A stretch of 64,000 bases of DNA from Alphaproteobacteria bacterium (GTDB lineage: Bacteria; Pseudomonadota; Alphaproteobacteria; MPNO01): assembly GCA_964291675.2 (NCBI GenBank), contig OZ219866.1, forward strand, positions 2,208,001-2,272,000, in the 5' to 3' direction. The notes under the pieces were generated by a model. That model was not told the DNA's origin, made no database searches, and was given only the letters and a program-made list of their open reading frames with translations. The position numbers were made by a program, and so were the translations under genes. This document shows, piece after piece, positions 2,507 through 8,039 of the stretch (the stretch's first letter is position 1; each line of letters begins with the position of its first letter).

Positions 2507-3406
2507 CTATGCGGGTTCGAGGAGGTCCTCCACGGGCGTGCCGTGCCAGCCCTCCTCGCGCCGGCTCCAGTAGCGCGACTGGAGGTGGCCGGTCAGAAGG
2601 CCGGCATGGCCGTTGCCGACCGGCCTGTCGCCGATGCGGATCACCGGCATGACGCCGCCCGCCGTGGTGCTCGCGAACACCTCGTCGGCCGCGCGCAGCT
2701 CCTCCGGCTCCACCCGGCGGCATGAGAAGGGGATGCCGTCCTCGCGGCAGAGCTCGGCCACCGCGCGCCTGGTGATGCCCTCCAGGACGTTGGCATCGGG
2801 CGTCGCGACCGCGCCGTCCTTCACCACGAAGACGTTGTAGCCCGGCCCTTCCGTGAGCGCGCCGTCAGCACCCACCAGCAGCGCATCGTCGCAGCCCCGG
2901 TCGTAGGCCTCGAAGCGGGCCTGCACGAAGTCGGCCCGGTTGTAGTTCTTGCAGCGGGCGTCGATCGCCCTCGACGAGACGCGCTCGACGCCGCTGACAT
3001 GGAGCGCGGCGCCGTTGCGGCACTTGTCCTCGCCCCAGATCCAGACATAGGGCATGGCGTAGGCCACGAACTCGGGCGCGCCGAGGCGGGGATCGCGGGC
3101 CCCGCTTTGGATGACGCCGCGGGTGAGCTGGAGCTTGACGTAGCAGTTGTCGTGCCCCGACCGGGCCACGCATTCGGCGAGGATACGGCGCATGTCGTCG
3201 GCGCCGTAGGGATTCTCCAGCCGGAACCCGGCGCAGGACCGGGCGAAGCGCTCCAGATGCTCGTCCAGCATGAAGAACCAGCCGGCCCAGGTTGAGGTCA
3301 CGTCGTAGACCGTGTCGCCCCAGACGAAGCCGGCATCGAAGATCGACATCCGGGCGTCCTCGGGCAAGACGTACTCGCCGCCGATGAACACGCATCCCTC
3401 GGTCAT
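2507..3406 (-). CDS. Aminotransferase class IV (branched-chain/(R)-amine transaminase-like)
   Basis: D-x-GF-x-x-GD-x-VYD, HLER, KNYNRAD (PLP Lys), EGPGYN, LEGITR, STTAGG. Confidence 0.9.
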   Translation of the reverse strand: MTEGCVFIGGEYVLPEDARMSIFDAGFVWGDTVYDVTSTWAGWFFMLDEHLERFARSCAGFRLENPYGADDMRRILAECVARSGHDNCYVKLQLTRGVIQSGARDPRLGAPEFVAYAMPYVWIWGEDKCRNGAALHVSGVERVSSRAIDARCKNYNRADFVQARFEAYDRGCDDALLVGADGALTEGPGYNVFVVKDGAVATPDANVLEGITRRAVAELCREDGIPFSCRRVEPEELRAADEVFASTTAGGVMPVIRIGDRPVGNGHAGLLTGHLQSRYWSRREEGWHGTPVEDLLEPA

Positions 3407-3488
3407 CGTTTCGTCCTCCGGCAGTCCCTGGCCGTCGTCCCGCGGGTTTCGATGATAGCCGCAGCGACGCCGGCCGCCACCGCCACCC

Positions 3489-3524
3489 CGTCAAGGCCGG
3501 CCCCCGGATCGAGTCCGGGCGTGA
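3489..3524. repeat. REP-like palindromic intergenic repeat (copy A)
   Basis: cgtcaaggccggcccccggatcgagtccgggcgtga is 33/36 identical to the reverse complement of 5565-5600, with an internal hairpin cccgga-tcgag-tccggg. A related degenerate palindrome lies at ~3571-3593. Confidence 0.75.
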
Positions 3525-3794
3525 CGAGGGGGCAGGCATGGCGGTGGGGCGGCCCGCCCCGCCCGTGGGTGCCCGGAACGAGGCCGGGGTGACAACGGAG
3601 GGGCAGGGACGGCAAGTGCGGGCGTGCGGCGATCCGTGTCCCGATCCGGCGGATGCGCCGATATCCCGCCCGGAACAAGGCTTTGCGCCCGGTCCAGCTC
3701 ATATAAACCGTCATGGTCTCGGCGGTGCTGAGCCACCCCGTGGCATGAAACTCGGGGCGTTCGGCTGAGGGTTTGCCGATCGTCGCGCGGGTCT

Positions 3795-4013
3795 GCCGTG
3801 GCAGGATGGGAACGGTGGAGGCGGCGACGCGTGAGCGTTCCGTTTATCGGTGATGTGGTTCCCGAGATATAAACTGCTTCCGGCGGTCGGCTCCGCACCC
3901 CGTACTGTGCCCGGCCCGCGGCCGTGGACGCGCGGCAAATCGAACCGCACCCGCTCGACGGGTGCGTGTCCTTCCGACCGCTGTCCCCGCCTCCACCGTG
4001 GCGATGCCACGGC
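3795..4013 (+). ncRNA. Putative IS110 bridge RNA (structured non-coding end upstream of the recombinase)
   Basis: Nested stems 3795-3803/4005-4013 (9 bp), 3812-3824/3987-3999 (13 bp), 3883-3890/3974-3981 (8 bp), and a hairpin at 3946-3966. Short segments match the target flank (atataaac, 3867-3874) and the donor end (cggcaaa, 3933-3939). RNA ends are inferred. Confidence 0.6.
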
Positions 4014-4058
4014 GCGATCCTACGCCGCCGTGGCGAGAGCGCAACGAGGAGGACAGCG

Positions 4059-5309
4059 ATGAAGACGGAAGGCTTGCACGTCGTGCGGCCGCACGCGGCG
4101 GGTCTGGACGTGCACAAGATGGAGATCACCGCGACGGTTCGCCTGTGCGAGGGCGAGGGCGAGCCGGTGGTGGAGACGCGCTGCTTCAGCTCGCTTCCGA
4201 GCGGTCTGGCGGAGATGGTCGCCTGGCTGACCGGTCGCCGCGTCGAGGCCGCTGTCATGGAAGGGACCGGGATCTACTGGCAGGCGCCCTTCGCGGCGGT
4301 GGAGGCGGCGGGGATCGAAGCGATCCTGGTGCACGCGCGTCAGGTCAAGCAGTTGAAGGGGCGCAAGACCGATGTCGCCGACAGCGTGTGGCTGGCCTGC
4401 GTGTGCCAGTTCGGGCTCTGCACGCCTTCCCATGTTCCCCCCGAGCCGTTCCGGCAGCTGCGCTCGCTGAGCCGCCAGCGGCGCACCCTGGTCAGGCAGC
4501 GCTCGACCGTGCGCAACCGGGTGCAGAAGATCGTCGACCGCGCCGGCCTGCGCATCGGCGGCATCCTCTCCGACGTCTTCGGCGTCAACGGCCGCAAGAT
4601 CCTCGACGGGCTGGCGCAAGCCACGCCGCGCGCGGTCATCCTCGCCTCGCTCACCGGCCACGTCGCCAACAAGCTGGAGGGGCTCGGCGAGGCGCTCTCC
4701 CTGAGCCTGGGCGACAACGACCGCTTCATGCTCGGCGATCTGCTGGACGAGCATGACGCGCTCGAGGCGCGCATCGCGTCCTACGGCGAGAAGATCGACC
4801 GGCAGATGACGCCGTGGCAGGAACAGCTCCGCCTGCTGACCACCATCCCCGGCATCGACCGCATCGCCGCCTCGACCATCCTGATCGAGATCGGCCCGGA
4901 TATCGAGGCGTTCGCCTCCAAGCAGCACTTCGCCGCCTGGGCCGGGCTCTGCCCCGGCAACAACGAAAGCGGCGGAAAGCGCCGCAACGCGCGCACCCGA
5001 AGGGGCTCCAAGACGCTGCGCGCCAGCCTCGTCGAATGTGCCCACGGCGCGGCCCGAACCAAGGGGTGCCAGTTCGAGGCCCACCACCGCGCGCTCGCCG
5101 CCCGGCGCGGATACAAGCGCGCCATCGTGGCCAGCGCACACAAGATGCTGCGCATCGTTTATGTCGTGCTCAAGACCGGCAGGCCCTACTACGACCGCAC
5201 CGCCGACTACGACGCGCTGATGGTCAAGCGCAACGCCCCGCGCTGGATCCGAATGCTCCGCCGCTACGGCTACATCCAACCCCGGCGCGCCGAACCCAAG
5301 GCCACCTGA
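4059..5309 (+). CDS. IS110-family transposase/recombinase (DEDD RuvC-like domain + Tnp20 domain), 416 aa
   Basis: GLDVHK, MEGTGIYW, KTDVADS (DEDD); TIPGI, AWAGLCP, NESGGK (catalytic Ser); AIVASAHKMLR. RBS GAGGAGG before ATG 4059. Confidence 0.95.
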   Translation: MKTEGLHVVRPHAAGLDVHKMEITATVRLCEGEGEPVVETRCFSSLPSGLAEMVAWLTGRRVEAAVMEGTGIYWQAPFAAVEAAGIEAILVHARQVKQLKGRKTDVADSVWLACVCQFGLCTPSHVPPEPFRQLRSLSRQRRTLVRQRSTVRNRVQKIVDRAGLRIGGILSDVFGVNGRKILDGLAQATPRAVILASLTGHVANKLEGLGEALSLSLGDNDRFMLGDLLDEHDALEARIASYGEKIDRQMTPWQEQLRLLTTIPGIDRIAASTILIEIGPDIEAFASKQHFAAWAGLCPGNNESGGKRRNARTRRGSKTLRASLVECAHGAARTKGCQFEAHHRALAARRGYKRAIVASAHKMLRIVYVVLKTGRPYYDRTADYDALMVKRNAPRWIRMLRRYGYIQPRRAEPKAT

Positions 5310-5466
5310 CCGGCCCGCATAACGCCGGACCGTCGCGCGGGACCGCTTCGGGCCACATCGGGGAAGTCCACCGCTCGTCTCGCCGCCCCCTTCCGGCGAT
5401 CTCAGCCAACTCCCTCCCGGCGTTGGATGGGGCCCTCGCGCGCCCCCACCGAAACTGTTTCACGGC

Positions 5467-5697
5467 AAACCGGACAGCAGTGGACTCGATCCGGGCATCC
5501 ATGGGCGCCGCCGCCCCTCTCGTCGGACCGTCGTGCGGGCGGAGAGGCCGCGTGGATGGCCGGATCACCCCCGGACTTGATCCGGGGGCCGGCCATGACG
5601 TAGGGGTGACAGCGGGAGCGGAGATGCAGATGTTCACGGGCGCGGAGCCCGCGCCGAAAATCTAAACCGGACAGCAGTGGACCTGATCCGGGCATCC
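5467..5697 (+). repeat. 34-bp direct repeat pair (5467-5500 and 5664-5697), AAACCGGACAGCAGTGG motif
   Basis: aaaccggacagcagtggactcgatccgggcatcc vs aaaccggacagcagtggacctgatccgggcatcc, 32/34 identical. Confidence 0.85.
5554..5600. repeat. REP-like palindromic intergenic repeat (copy B)
   Basis: ggatggccgg-atca-cccccgga-cttga-tccggggg-ccggccat: nested perfect palindrome, inverted relative to copy A. Confidence 0.8.
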
Positions 5698-5822
5698 GTC
5701 GCGTGGCGGGGGCGCCGTGCGGATGGGCGTGAATTTCCGAACCGGGACACTGGATGCGCGCATGCGGTTTGCGGTCGTGCCGGGGTTTCAATACGCTTTT
5801 TCCGGCACGCTGGAGACACGAG

Positions 5823-8039
5823 ATGCTTCCGATCACCGGCTATGCCGACCGCTATTCCGTAGCGCCCGGCCAATCCATCGCGTTCAAGGTATCCTCGACC
5901 GTGCCGGAGGACTACGAGGCGCGCCTGGTGCGCGTGATCTGCGGCGACCCCAACCCGGCCGGACCCGGCATGCGGGAACAGCCCGTCGAGGCCGCCTTTG
6001 CCGGAAGCTACCCCTCCCGGGTGCAGCCGATCCACAACGGCTCGTGGGCGCGCGTCGCCGCCACCGCACCGCTCGATGCGCTGAGCAGCTTCACGGTGAC
6101 CGCCACCGTCTGGCCCACCCTGCCCCGCCTCCCCCGCCGGCAGGGTCTGGTGTCGCGCGTCGATGCCGCCACCGGCGCCGGCTTCACGCTGGAGATCGAC
6201 GAGGCCGGCTCGCTTGCCGCCACGCTGAGCGACGGCGCCCGCACGGTCGTCCTCGACACCGGCAAGGCACTGCGTGCCCGCGCCTGGTACCGGGTCTTCC
6301 TCAGCTACGACGCGGGCACGGGCGAAATCCGCGTCGGCCAGCGTGCGCTCGCGCCCACGATGACGGTGGACGATTCGGGCACCGCCGCCGCCTCGGCCGC
6401 CTTCGAGGGCGGATGCACCGGGAGCGGCGATCTCGCGTTCGCGGCGCGGGCGGGCTCGCCTCCCGGCGATCACTATAACGGCAAGCTCGAAGCGCCGCGG
6501 ATCGTGGCGGCCGCCCTCGACCCGGATTCGGCATTCCGCGCCGCGGAGGAAGACCCCGCGCGATCCGGCGAGCGCCTGGTCGCCGCGTGGGACTTCTCGC
6601 GCGAGATGTCGTCGGCGCGCATCCTGGACACCGGCCCGCACGCGATGCACGGCGAGACCGTCAACCTGCCGGCGCGCGCGATGACGGGCTGGCGCTGGAC
6701 CGGCGAGGAGATGTGCTGGCGCCACGCTCCGGCGCAGTACGGCGCCATCCACTTCCACGACGACGACCTCTACGACTGCGGCTGGGAGACCGATTTCAGC
6801 TTCGAGGTGCCCGACGACTTCAGGAGCGGCGCCTACGCGGTGCGCCTCGCCGCCGGCGGCGAAGAGGACATGATCCCCTTCTTCGTGCGCGCCCGGGCGG
6901 GCCGGGCGCAGTCGAGCGCCTGCGTGCTGATCCCCGTCTTCACCTACACCGTCTACGCCAACTTCGCCCGCGGCAATGTCGACGACGCCTATCGCGCGCA
7001 GGTCGCGCGCTGGAGCGCGCGCCCGTGGACGCCGGACGAGCACCCCGAATACGGGATCTCGACCTACAACCGCCATAGCGACGGCAGCGGGGTCGCCTAT
7101 TCGTCGCGGCTTCGTCCGATCCTCAACCAGCGCTCCGGATACTGCGCCTATGCGGACCCCAAGGGCGGCTCCTGCCTGCGCCACTTCCCCGCCGACACCC
7201 ATCTTCTCGCCTGGCTGAATGCGCTCGGCCACGATTTCGACGTCATCACGGACGAGGATCTCGAGGCGGACGGCGTCGGCGCGATCGCGGACTACAAGGC
7301 GGTGATGACGGGCTCCCACCCGGAATACCACACCCCGGGCTCGCTCGACGCGCTCGCCGAGTACACCGAACGGGGCGGGCGCCTGATGTATCTCGGCGGC
7401 AACGGCTTCTACTGGCGCGTCGCGGTGAATGCGGCGCTGCCGGGCGCGGTCGAGATCCGCCGCGGCGAGACCGGAATCCGCGCCTGGGCGGCCGAGCCGG
7501 GGGAGTACTACAACGCCTTCGACGGCGGCTATGGCGGGCTGTGGCGGAACAGCGGCCGCGCGCCGCAGCGTCTCGTCGGGGTGGGGTTCATCGCCCAGGG
7601 CGACTTTCACGGCACCGCCTACCGGCGCCTGCCCGCCTCGCGCGACCCCCGCGCCGCCTGGATCTTCGAGGGGATCGAGGACGACGAGCTTTTGGGCGAT
7701 TTCGGCCTGAGCGGCGGCGGGGCGGCCGGGTTCGAGCTCGACTGGCTCGACCCGAGCCTCGGATCGCCGGCCCACGCCCTGGTGCTCGCCCGCTCGGAGC
7801 CGCAGGACGACACCTTCATGCTGGTGCCGGAGGAGATGCTGAACCACTACGTCAACCGCCCCGGCCTGCCGACCGAGGACCTCATCCGCTCGGAGATCGT
7901 GTACTTCGAGACGCCCAACGGCGGCGCAGTGTTCTCGGTCGGCTCGATCACCTTCTGCGGCAGCCTCCCGCACAACGACTTCCACAACAACGTCTCGCGC
8001 ATGCTCGACAACGTGTTGCGCAGGTTCCGGGCGGGCTGA
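5823..8039 (+). CDS. N,N-dimethylformamidase large (beta) subunit family protein with LamG-like domain
   Basis: ITGYADRYSVAPG, AIHFHDDDL, SGAYA, TYTVYAN, STYNRHSDG, ADTHLLAWL, GSHPEY, LGGNGFYW, GFELD. RBS GGAG before ATG 5823. Confidence 0.88.
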   Translation: MLPITGYADRYSVAPGQSIAFKVSSTVPEDYEARLVRVICGDPNPAGPGMREQPVEAAFAGSYPSRVQPIHNGSWARVAATAPLDALSSFTVTATVWPTLPRLPRRQGLVSRVDAATGAGFTLEIDEAGSLAATLSDGARTVVLDTGKALRARAWYRVFLSYDAGTGEIRVGQRALAPTMTVDDSGTAAASAAFEGGCTGSGDLAFAARAGSPPGDHYNGKLEAPRIVAAALDPDSAFRAAEEDPARSGERLVAAWDFSREMSSARILDTGPHAMHGETVNLPARAMTGWRWTGEEMCWRHAPAQYGAIHFHDDDLYDCGWETDFSFEVPDDFRSGAYAVRLAAGGEEDMIPFFVRARAGRAQSSACVLIPVFTYTVYANFARGNVDDAYRAQVARWSARPWTPDEHPEYGISTYNRHSDGSGVAYSSRLRPILNQRSGYCAYADPKGGSCLRHFPADTHLLAWLNALGHDFDVITDEDLEADGVGAIADYKAVMTGSHPEYHTPGSLDALAEYTERGGRLMYLGGNGFYWRVAVNAALPGAVEIRRGETGIRAWAAEPGEYYNAFDGGYGGLWRNSGRAPQRLVGVGFIAQGDFHGTAYRRLPASRDPRAAWIFEGIEDDELLGDFGLSGGGAAGFELDWLDPSLGSPAHALVLARSEPQDDTFMLVPEEMLNHYVNRPGLPTEDLIRSEIVYFETPNGGAVFSVGSITFCGSLPHNDFHNNVSRMLDNVLRRFRAG

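Follow-up and report, generated by a model that had tools for sequence, protein, structure and literature searches.

How does an insertion sequence that carries a long non-coding segment upstream of its recombinase gene recognize its target and its own ends, and does that segment encode the guide? We investigated this question for an IS110-family element in a 64,000-nt stretch of Alphaproteobacteria bacterium DNA (assembly GCA_964291675.2, contig OZ219866.1, positions 2,208,001 to 2,272,000 of the forward strand), which is referred to here as the window and whose first letter is position 1. To our knowledge, bridge and seek RNAs are the only guides that program a recombinase for both of its DNA partners. 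On the strength of sequence comparisons, the 348-nt left end of the element very probably encodes such a bridge RNA on the + strand, with a core of ∼190 nt and with guides for both target and donor (Table 1).

The body of the element comprises 1760 nt (1762 nt when one copy of the core is counted), its ends having been set from the points at which its own copies, relatives of 88-99% identity, and the flanks diverge. An AA dinucleotide, present at 3705-3706 on the left and at 5467-5468 on the right, is the sole sequence common to both junctions in all families; in three of the eight own copies, the right core is followed by one A less, which fits AA as the crossover dinucleotide and does not fit a core lying further to the right. 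The own genome holds eight full copies of 99-100% identity, all of which sit in a repetitive extragenic palindromic (REP)-like sequence, the left half and the right half of which are each found dozens of times, and it also contains unoccupied target sites. A contig from RNA libraries passes directly from 3710 into right-flank letters. The non-coding DNA amounts to 348 nt upstream of the recombinase gene and 157 nt downstream; a search for long terminal inverted repeats found none, and the best subterminal match is only 6-7 nt long, at unequal offsets from the two ends. The element thus shows the multiple copies, defined ends, specific site, short shared core, and lack of long terminal repeats of an IS110-family insertion sequence. 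Its 416-aa recombinase matches PF01548 (N-terminal DEDD/RuvC-like domain; E 4.9e-22, residues 14-161), PF02371 (C-terminal Transposase_20 domain; E 3.5e-23, residues 258-342), and the NCBIfam model NF033542, "IS110 family RNA-guided transposase" (266.2 bits, cut-off 140). Among solved structures, only the IS621 and ISCro4 transposase chains match, distantly (E ∼1e-14 to 1e-15), and the best plasmid-borne relative of the protein has 43% identity.

A scan of species-representative genomes provided 78 related loci with protein identities of 58-99%, from metagenome-assembled genomes assigned to Alphaproteobacteria, Thalassobaculaceae, Vicinamibacterales, Pseudomonadales, Rhodobacterales, Candidatus Azotimanducaceae, and Candidatus Binatia; a metagenome scan provided 15 more. 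A covariance model (R1), built from 11 closer relatives with a structure set by hand, locates the RNA in 35 of 36 sources, in each of these upstream of the recombinase gene, the exception being a contig that has no left end, and recovers all eight copies in the own genome. With stricter filters, R1 had no match in 150 other genomes of the same class, which are a sample of that class only. Junction tables exclude L070, L104, L105, L111 (contig without left end), and L114 (no left end); L106 was left out as a duplicate of L108 from the column-versus-junction scan, the anchored profiles, the fixed-register analysis of the right target guide, and the donor-guide analysis; and tandem-junction flanks, which belong to another element copy, as well as the right flanks of L007 and L008, were excluded from the target-guide permutation tests and from the site counts of the B-type relative described below.

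The core of the proposed RNA (3812-3999) is conserved in 35 related loci, and its helices covary. Across 32 distinct rows, 94.1% of the stem cells are standard pairs, and 33 of the 50 pairs changed on both sides. The covariation score of 0.319 compares with 0.132 ± 0.006 for shuffled alignments (0 of 500 reach it) and with 0.041-0.065 when the partners are slid. Moreover, when 20 families were analysed independently with MAFFT/RNAalifold, the principal helices came out again, 16 of 40 pairs being compensated. In the stems, G.U cells outnumber A.C cells (106 versus 42), which favours an RNA on the + (recombinase) strand. All three perfect stems noticed in the window alone (3795-3803/4005-4013, 3812-3824/3987-3999, and 3883-3890/3974-3981) were recovered, the second of them extending to 17 nt (3812-3828/3983-3999). 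The covarying stems bear out the idea of a long closing stem around two subdomains; the outermost 9-bp stem, however, belongs to closer relatives only and is absent in L019 and in the families of 58-63% identity. The left end therefore carries what is expected of a bridge RNA, namely a conserved, structured, non-coding element beside the recombinase gene with two domains. Of these, the donor domain consists of a basal stem enclosing two hairpins, H1 and H2, which are joined by single strands into a three-way junction. A terminator-like match on the minus strand at 3946-3966 is hairpin H2 read from the opposite strand.

The 3' strand of the target loop contains an 8-mer (3867-3874) that is identical to the left target (LT) flank plus core (3701-3708), as the original prediction had noticed in proposing a target guide there. 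This 8-mer occurs at only those two places on both strands of the window, against an expectation of 0.04, and its first six letters (3867-3872) match the left flank and the AA core in 29 family/site rows. In an unbiased scan of every alignment column against every junction position, for which junctions were taken from stored loci by coordinates, the top cell joined 3870 to LT-1, the two being identical in 29/29 rows with all four letters occurring. Most of the other high cells in the mutual-information scan, apart from the two guide cells (this one and a donor-guide cell given below), represent clade signal (e.g., LD-10 in the left donor) and were set aside. Anchored at its 3' end and followed 5'-wards, the target-loop 3' strand is identical to the left junction at 1.00 in five successive positions and then at 0.97, 0.97, 0.66, and 0.17 (n = 29), which indicates that the left guide covers four letters of the flank, the AA core, and a further two letters. 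In a permutation test with 18 guide groups, the observed value was 0.745, compared with 0.273 ± 0.047 for shuffles (0 of 20,000 reach it).

Occupancy of sites in the own genome agrees with this guide. Among 80 sites of the form N4-AA(A)C-right flank, the eight occupied ones have no mismatch to the guide in five cases and one mismatch in three, whereas the empty ones number 0, 22, and 50 at zero, one, and two or more mismatches, respectively (Fisher p = 2.3e-6); no guide-perfect site remains unoccupied. The right-flank word has 166 occurrences in the genome at up to one mismatch, of which the same 80 show the N4-AA(A)C form of the REP-like family. A B-type relative, which has its own, different guide and is present in 52 copies at 37 unique sites, matches that guide at LT-1 in 36/37 sites, at LT-2 in 37/37, at LT-3 in 33/37, and at LT-4 in 18/37. 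Proposed as a mere alternative to guiding, pairing of the two target-loop strands with each other was examined and rejected: the longest complementary run averages 3.59 for cognate and 3.48 for non-cognate strands, and the caveat to that effect in the original prediction can be dropped. The 6-bp match between the window's own two strands is the largest of the 29.

Could the left end be something other than an RNA guide, such as a structured 5' untranslated region or a DNA-binding site, with its likeness to the flank arising from a misplaced boundary or from copying of the flank? The flank letters vary among copies of a single element type while the internal segment stays fixed, so the matching letters are flank and not element; empty sites exist; the internal segment changes between families in step with the flanks; and the stems stay paired through G.U on the + strand. 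What speaks for such a reading is that the matches are short, together with the RNA and promoter data, which also weigh against a guide RNA. RNA has been seen only as library contigs: in metatranscriptomes of two studies, contigs of 90-95% relatives cover the left end and the gene, and one run has pieces of at least 99% identity, but such contigs reveal neither ends nor strand, may include DNA carry-over, and do not make gaps or depth of coverage evidence. A scan of the left end and of the natural right-end/left-end junction in the L035 tandem array, restricted to sigma-70 consensus promoters, found none, in line with the earlier remark that no clear junction promoter is present. The single-sequence fold has z = -1.17, with 12 of 100 shuffles folding as well, and an Rfam 15 scan of 3300-6000 (E up to 10) gave six chance-level matches, none near its gathering score; the significance of the structure had therefore to come from comparative data. 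Within those data, the families share descent, so that shuffles overstate significance; the alignment (A4) was fitted to the covariance model, which favours the structure score; and junction placement in single-copy relatives was aided by the conserved AA. Taken with the points above, we regard the absence of any RNA guide as highly improbable.

The signal for the right half of the target is weaker. The original prediction had pointed to a segment at 3837-3847 that is a 9/11 match to the reverse complement of the rebuilt target, a match that is indeed present. Between its conserved stems, the target loop has a hypervariable 5' strand (3838-3847), in which 3839-3845 is complementary to the core A and the right target (RT) flank (RT+1 to RT+6), with six of seven letters paired in the window. 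In a fixed register, positions 3-8 from the 3' end have on average 3.44 of 6 Watson-Crick pairs with the second core A and the first five RT letters, compared with 2.29 ± 0.19 for shuffled partners (0 of 20,000); the right-guide diagonal has a mean of 0.65 versus 0.38-0.51; and in none of the three tests applied to this guide did a shuffle reach the observed value (0 of 5,000 or 0 of 20,000). L082, L108, and L107 have complementary stretches of 5-6 nt, as does L103 when read by eye at a shifted register. A right target guide at 3839-3845 is thus plausible but weak. From the segment first proposed, it is this part, read against the core and right flank, that stands, with a modest signal across families; a register that would also cover the left flank is unsupported by relatives, and in the B-type relative the signal is absent. 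Loop segments consequently covary with target flanks on both strands, strongly on the left and significantly yet weakly on the right.

On the donor side, the segment at 3931-3940 had been noted as an 8/10 match to 5461-5470 and proposed as a donor guide, and both statements held. Letters 3932-3936 are the sense of the last five nucleotides of the element's right end, with one G.T wobble, and 3937-3938 are the core AA, so that 3932-3938 matches the left side of the circle junction. Position 3934 is identical to LD-3 in 25/25 rows, with the DNA varying between G and A, and in a table of 26 rows the fifth position of this left donor guide is identical or a G.T wobble in 26/26. For the corresponding right donor guide, every diagonal of the donor-domain 5' strand against the core and the element's first 12 nt was examined, and none covaries. 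The best diagonal (offset 5, mean 0.60) rests on conserved letters, and the strand shows only an invariant two-letter complement to the first two nucleotides of the element.

These results raise the possibility of a half-guided system, in which only the left target and left donor guides are real, the 5' strands of the two domains (3838-3847 and 3891-3906) have structural or protein-binding roles, and reading of the right halves of target and donor either falls to the protein or does not take place. Several observations count towards it and against guides for all four halves: (i) at the 37 unique B-type sites, right-flank preference ends with RT+1, a letter that itself misfits the B-type 5' strand; (ii) L065, L066, L102, L103, and L110 have only 1-2 of 6 pairs for the right target guide in the fixed register; (iii) no right donor guide diagonal was found; and (iv) the element has conserved sequences at its right end and left start, as expected of a protein site. 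Yet the target-loop 5' strand, which lies between two conserved stems, is hypervariable in the manner of a guide, its complementarity to the cognate right flank exceeds that of all shuffles, with the long runs noted above, and IS621 requires both guides, according to the text of PMC11208160. We consider a half-guided system improbable and favour a bridge RNA in which the target-loop 5' strand is a further, if weak, guide.

Another segment, ggtttgccg at 3770-3778, had been put forward as an exact inverse of the right junction. It does match 5463-5471 exactly in inverse orientation, and this 9-mer has three matches in the window against 0.68 expected; as a guide it was rejected, the sequence being changed in L016, different in the B-type relative, and deleted in L019, L060, and L063. 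The segment, which is present only in the window's own element type, has complementarity to the left donor guide (3933-3939) as well. The match is probably due to chance, or perhaps reflects lineage-specific self-pairing.

In the mechanism that these segments suggest, 3867-3872 in the target-loop 3' strand would base-pair with the left flank and AA core on their bottom strand, 3839-3845 in the 5' strand would base-pair with the core and right flank on their top strand, and 3932-3938 in the donor domain would offer the sense of the element's right end and core. A recombinase-RNA complex would pair these segments with the target and with the circular donor, and strands would be exchanged at the AA core, as in IS621. 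The two letters after the core in the left guide (3873-3874) are the same as those that open the element (RD+1 and RD+2 of the right donor) in 29/29 rows, and they agree with the right flank at 0.76 for RT+1 and 0.40 for RT+2 (25 rows). In the text of PMC11208158, the handshake guides of IS621 are described as two letters next to the 3'-side guide that pair with non-cognate DNA after strand exchange. By analogy, we infer that 3873-3874 may be a handshake-like guide, in a mirror image of the IS621 arrangement. In favour of this, L102 has a different letter at the handshake-like position in RNA and element alike; against it, the other letters are mostly invariant, and the changed letter of L102 also equals RT+1. 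Exchanging the DNA labels (top with bottom, left with right) turns the loop into an IS621-like one that carries flank, core, and two handshake letters on its 3' side; from this likeness, the bottom strand in gene orientation would be the one exchanged first. The synaptic geometry would then be as in IS621, and the cargo would lie in inverted orientation to the recombination site.

The order of the guides within the target loop, in which the complement of the top strand (3839-3845) lies 5' of the complement of the bottom strand (3867-3872), sets this element apart from some known systems and aligns it with others. Only three arrangements have been established experimentally in the published work compared here: IS621/ISCro4, ISEc21, and IS1111 members. 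Judged against the text of PMC11208160 and PMC11208158, the original prediction was right that the target segments lie in the opposite order to those of IS621. The two systems agree in that their RNAs lie in the left end upstream of a DEDD recombinase, have one target and one donor domain, carry left guides of top-strand sense that include the core, possess a two-letter extension matching the non-cognate partner, and use a REP-like site. They differ in that (i) the guide order is swapped, the top-strand-pairing guide here being 5' and the bottom-strand-pairing guide 3'; (ii) the extension here is on the bottom-strand guide; (iii) the core is AA here and CT in IS621; (iv) the donor domain is a three-way junction here and an internal loop in IS621; (v) one long stem here encloses both domains; and (vi) the protein has 416 aa, compared with 328 aa in the IS621 chain on record, to which it is distantly related (E ∼1e-14). 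ISEc21, an IS110-type element whose seekRNA follows the IS621 order (bottom-strand match 5' of top-strand match) in the text of PMC11187229, likewise has an upstream non-coding region and RNA matches to both target strands, but with the order reversed relative to ours. ISPpu10 of P. putida, as far as 10.64898/2026.03.19.712850 describes it, is similarly an IS110-group element with one REP-type intergenic repeat as target and several copies per genome; its mapping followed the pairing logic of IS621, with CT as the core, as opposed to the AA core and swapped order here.

The same order as ours is published for the IS1111-type seekRNAs of ISEc11, ISPa11, and ISKpn4, which reverse that of ISEc21 and, like our element, use REP or other short specific targets (text of PMC11187229); a multi-loop donor recognition as seen here is also described for IS1111 members (text of PMC11208160). 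IS1111 elements have their non-coding region downstream of the gene, subterminal inverted repeats of 7-17 bp, and recombinases of 330-350 aa, whereas recombinases of the IS110 subgroup have 395-455 aa (text of PMC11187229). In our element, the region is upstream, no such repeats were found, and the 416-aa protein falls inside the IS110 range and outside the IS1111 range. By the usage of PMC11187229, therefore, the element has the long upstream non-coding region of the IS110 group without its bottom-strand-first order, and the guide order of the IS1111 group without its subterminal repeats, downstream region, or protein length. A description of swapped order in upstream-encoded RNAs was not found in published text, and the figures or supplements of PMC11208160, PMC11187229, and 10.64898/2026.10.21.760802 may already show one; a 2026 preprint with 86 models of diverse bridge RNAs does not discuss guide order in the text available.

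One account of this mixture is that the element descends from the IS1111 lineage, with its non-coding region moved upstream, so that the guide order would be ancestral IS1111 logic and no new IS110 arrangement. The match order and multi-loop donor domain shared with IS1111-type RNAs (PMC11187229, PMC11208160, as far as their text goes) suit this account, and ISMtsp17, an IS1111 relative, is described in the text of PMC11187229 as having an upstream non-coding region. The lack of subterminal inverted repeats, with a best match of 6-7 nt at unequal distances from the ends, and a protein length typical of the IS110 subgroup speak against it, and we judge an IS1111 origin to be rather unlikely. 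As it stands, the element combines an IS110 layout with guides in the IS1111-type order; its core is AA, its left guide is short and bears a handshake-like extension, and its donor domain is a multi-loop within one closing stem.

The original prediction of a distinct subtype holds insofar as the order differs from that of IS621, but the same match order had already been published for IS1111-type seekRNAs (PMC11187229). We tentatively suggest, as a possibility that falls somewhat short of being the expected outcome, that the element represents a separate bridge-recombinase subtype, in which the recombination site is inverted with respect to the RNA and recombinase genes, the bottom strand is exchanged first, the handshake lies on the left guides, and targeting depends mainly on a short left guide (4 + 2 + 2 nt); this could be the rule for the 395-455 aa IS110 subgroup. 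Were this so, IS110-type layout could be separated from IS1111-type guide logic, and the system would act orthogonally to IS621 and ISCro4. The co-occurrence of IS110 layout and IS1111 order bears on how the two groups are related and on whether guide order fixes the strand exchanged first, and hence the direction of insertion versus excision. The B-type relative, which spreads with ∼6-7 specified base pairs, bears on minimal guide length. The system is compact and distant in sequence, and it could be orthogonal to current tools; the diversity of bridge RNAs as such is no longer surprising, given the 86 models of the 2026 preprint.

Table 1. Features of the element, its junctions, and the proposed RNA, in window coordinates
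Feature	Position	Strand	Evidence and remarks
Left target flank (LT)	3695-3704	+	Guide-read part is the last 4 nt (3701-3704); junction comparison of own copies and relatives
Left AA core	3705-3706	unstranded	Shared by left and right junctions in all families
IS110-family element body	3707-5466	+	8 copies; divergence of relatives and flanks
Left-terminus hairpin (3714-3719/3730-3735)	3714-3735	+	RNAalifold, 23 families: 6 pairs, 4 with double changes
Outermost stem, 5' arm (with 4005-4013)	3795-3803	+	Perfect 9 bp; closer relatives only
Closing stem P1, 5' arm (with 3983-3999)	3812-3828	+	16 pairs, 13 changed on both sides
Target-loop basal stem, 5' arm (with 3875-3879)	3833-3837	+	98.1% paired; 2 pairs with 10 and 15 double changes
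Target-loop 5' strand	3838-3847	+	3839-3845 proposed right target guide; 3846-3847 conserved linker
Target-loop distal hairpin	3848-3864	+	98.7% paired; 2 pairs with double changes
Target-loop 3' strand	3865-3874	+	3867-3870 left target guide; 3871-3872 core AA; 3873-3874 handshake-like
Donor-domain basal stem, 5' arm (with 3974-3981)	3883-3890	+	8/8 pairs changed on both sides
Donor-domain 5' single strand	3891-3906	+	Expected right-donor-guide position
Donor-domain hairpin H1	3907-3929	+	99.2% paired; 3 pairs with double changes
Left donor guide segment	3930-3940	+	3932-3936 right-end sense; 3937-3938 core AA; A at 3939
Donor-domain hairpin H2	3946-3966	+	5/8 pairs with double changes
416-aa DEDD recombinase gene	4059-5309	+	PF01548, PF02371, NF033542
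Right element end (left donor, LD)	5457-5466	+	Conserved in all families
Right AA core	5467-5468	unstranded	Junction comparison
Right target flank (RT), part of REP-like repeat	5469-5480	+	Repeat copies in genome

Outside the core of the RNA, the hairpin at the left terminus was found by RNAalifold after removal of eight near-duplicate loci, and a motif conserved in all families follows it, to ∼3750. This hairpin and motif (3714-3750) may serve as a 5' stem-loop of the RNA, as a site for the recombinase on the donor, or as part of a promoter. In L055, the left end is split, its first ∼100 nt lying ∼1.4 kb upstream of the remainder, so that its non-coding end appears to be interrupted by an insertion.

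The REP-like target repeat is present in the window at 3650-3710, 5467-5520, and 5664-5697, and an intact copy without an insertion lies 197 nt downstream of the element. The B-type relative (L033, L035, L025, L028, L041, L080) forms head-to-tail tandem arrays of two or three full elements, with three or four A's at the tandem junctions, as in the expected circle junction or with one extra A, which suggests either insertion beside a resident right end or donor-donor recombination. In the group L007/L008/L009, of which L008 and L009 are from a second contig of the own genome, one own copy has an additional, partial right end behind it, a repeat of its last ∼178 nt, and in another copy the final ∼14 nt are duplicated at the right junction. 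Further, a short element of ∼250-300 bp without a recombinase gene occurs in L020 (∼1045), L038 (minus strand), L044 (∼4373), L045 (∼74), L046 (∼1920), and L093 (minus strand); it starts with a sequence like the left terminus, contains a motif like the right end, and may be a non-autonomous derivative similar to a miniature inverted-repeat transposable element.

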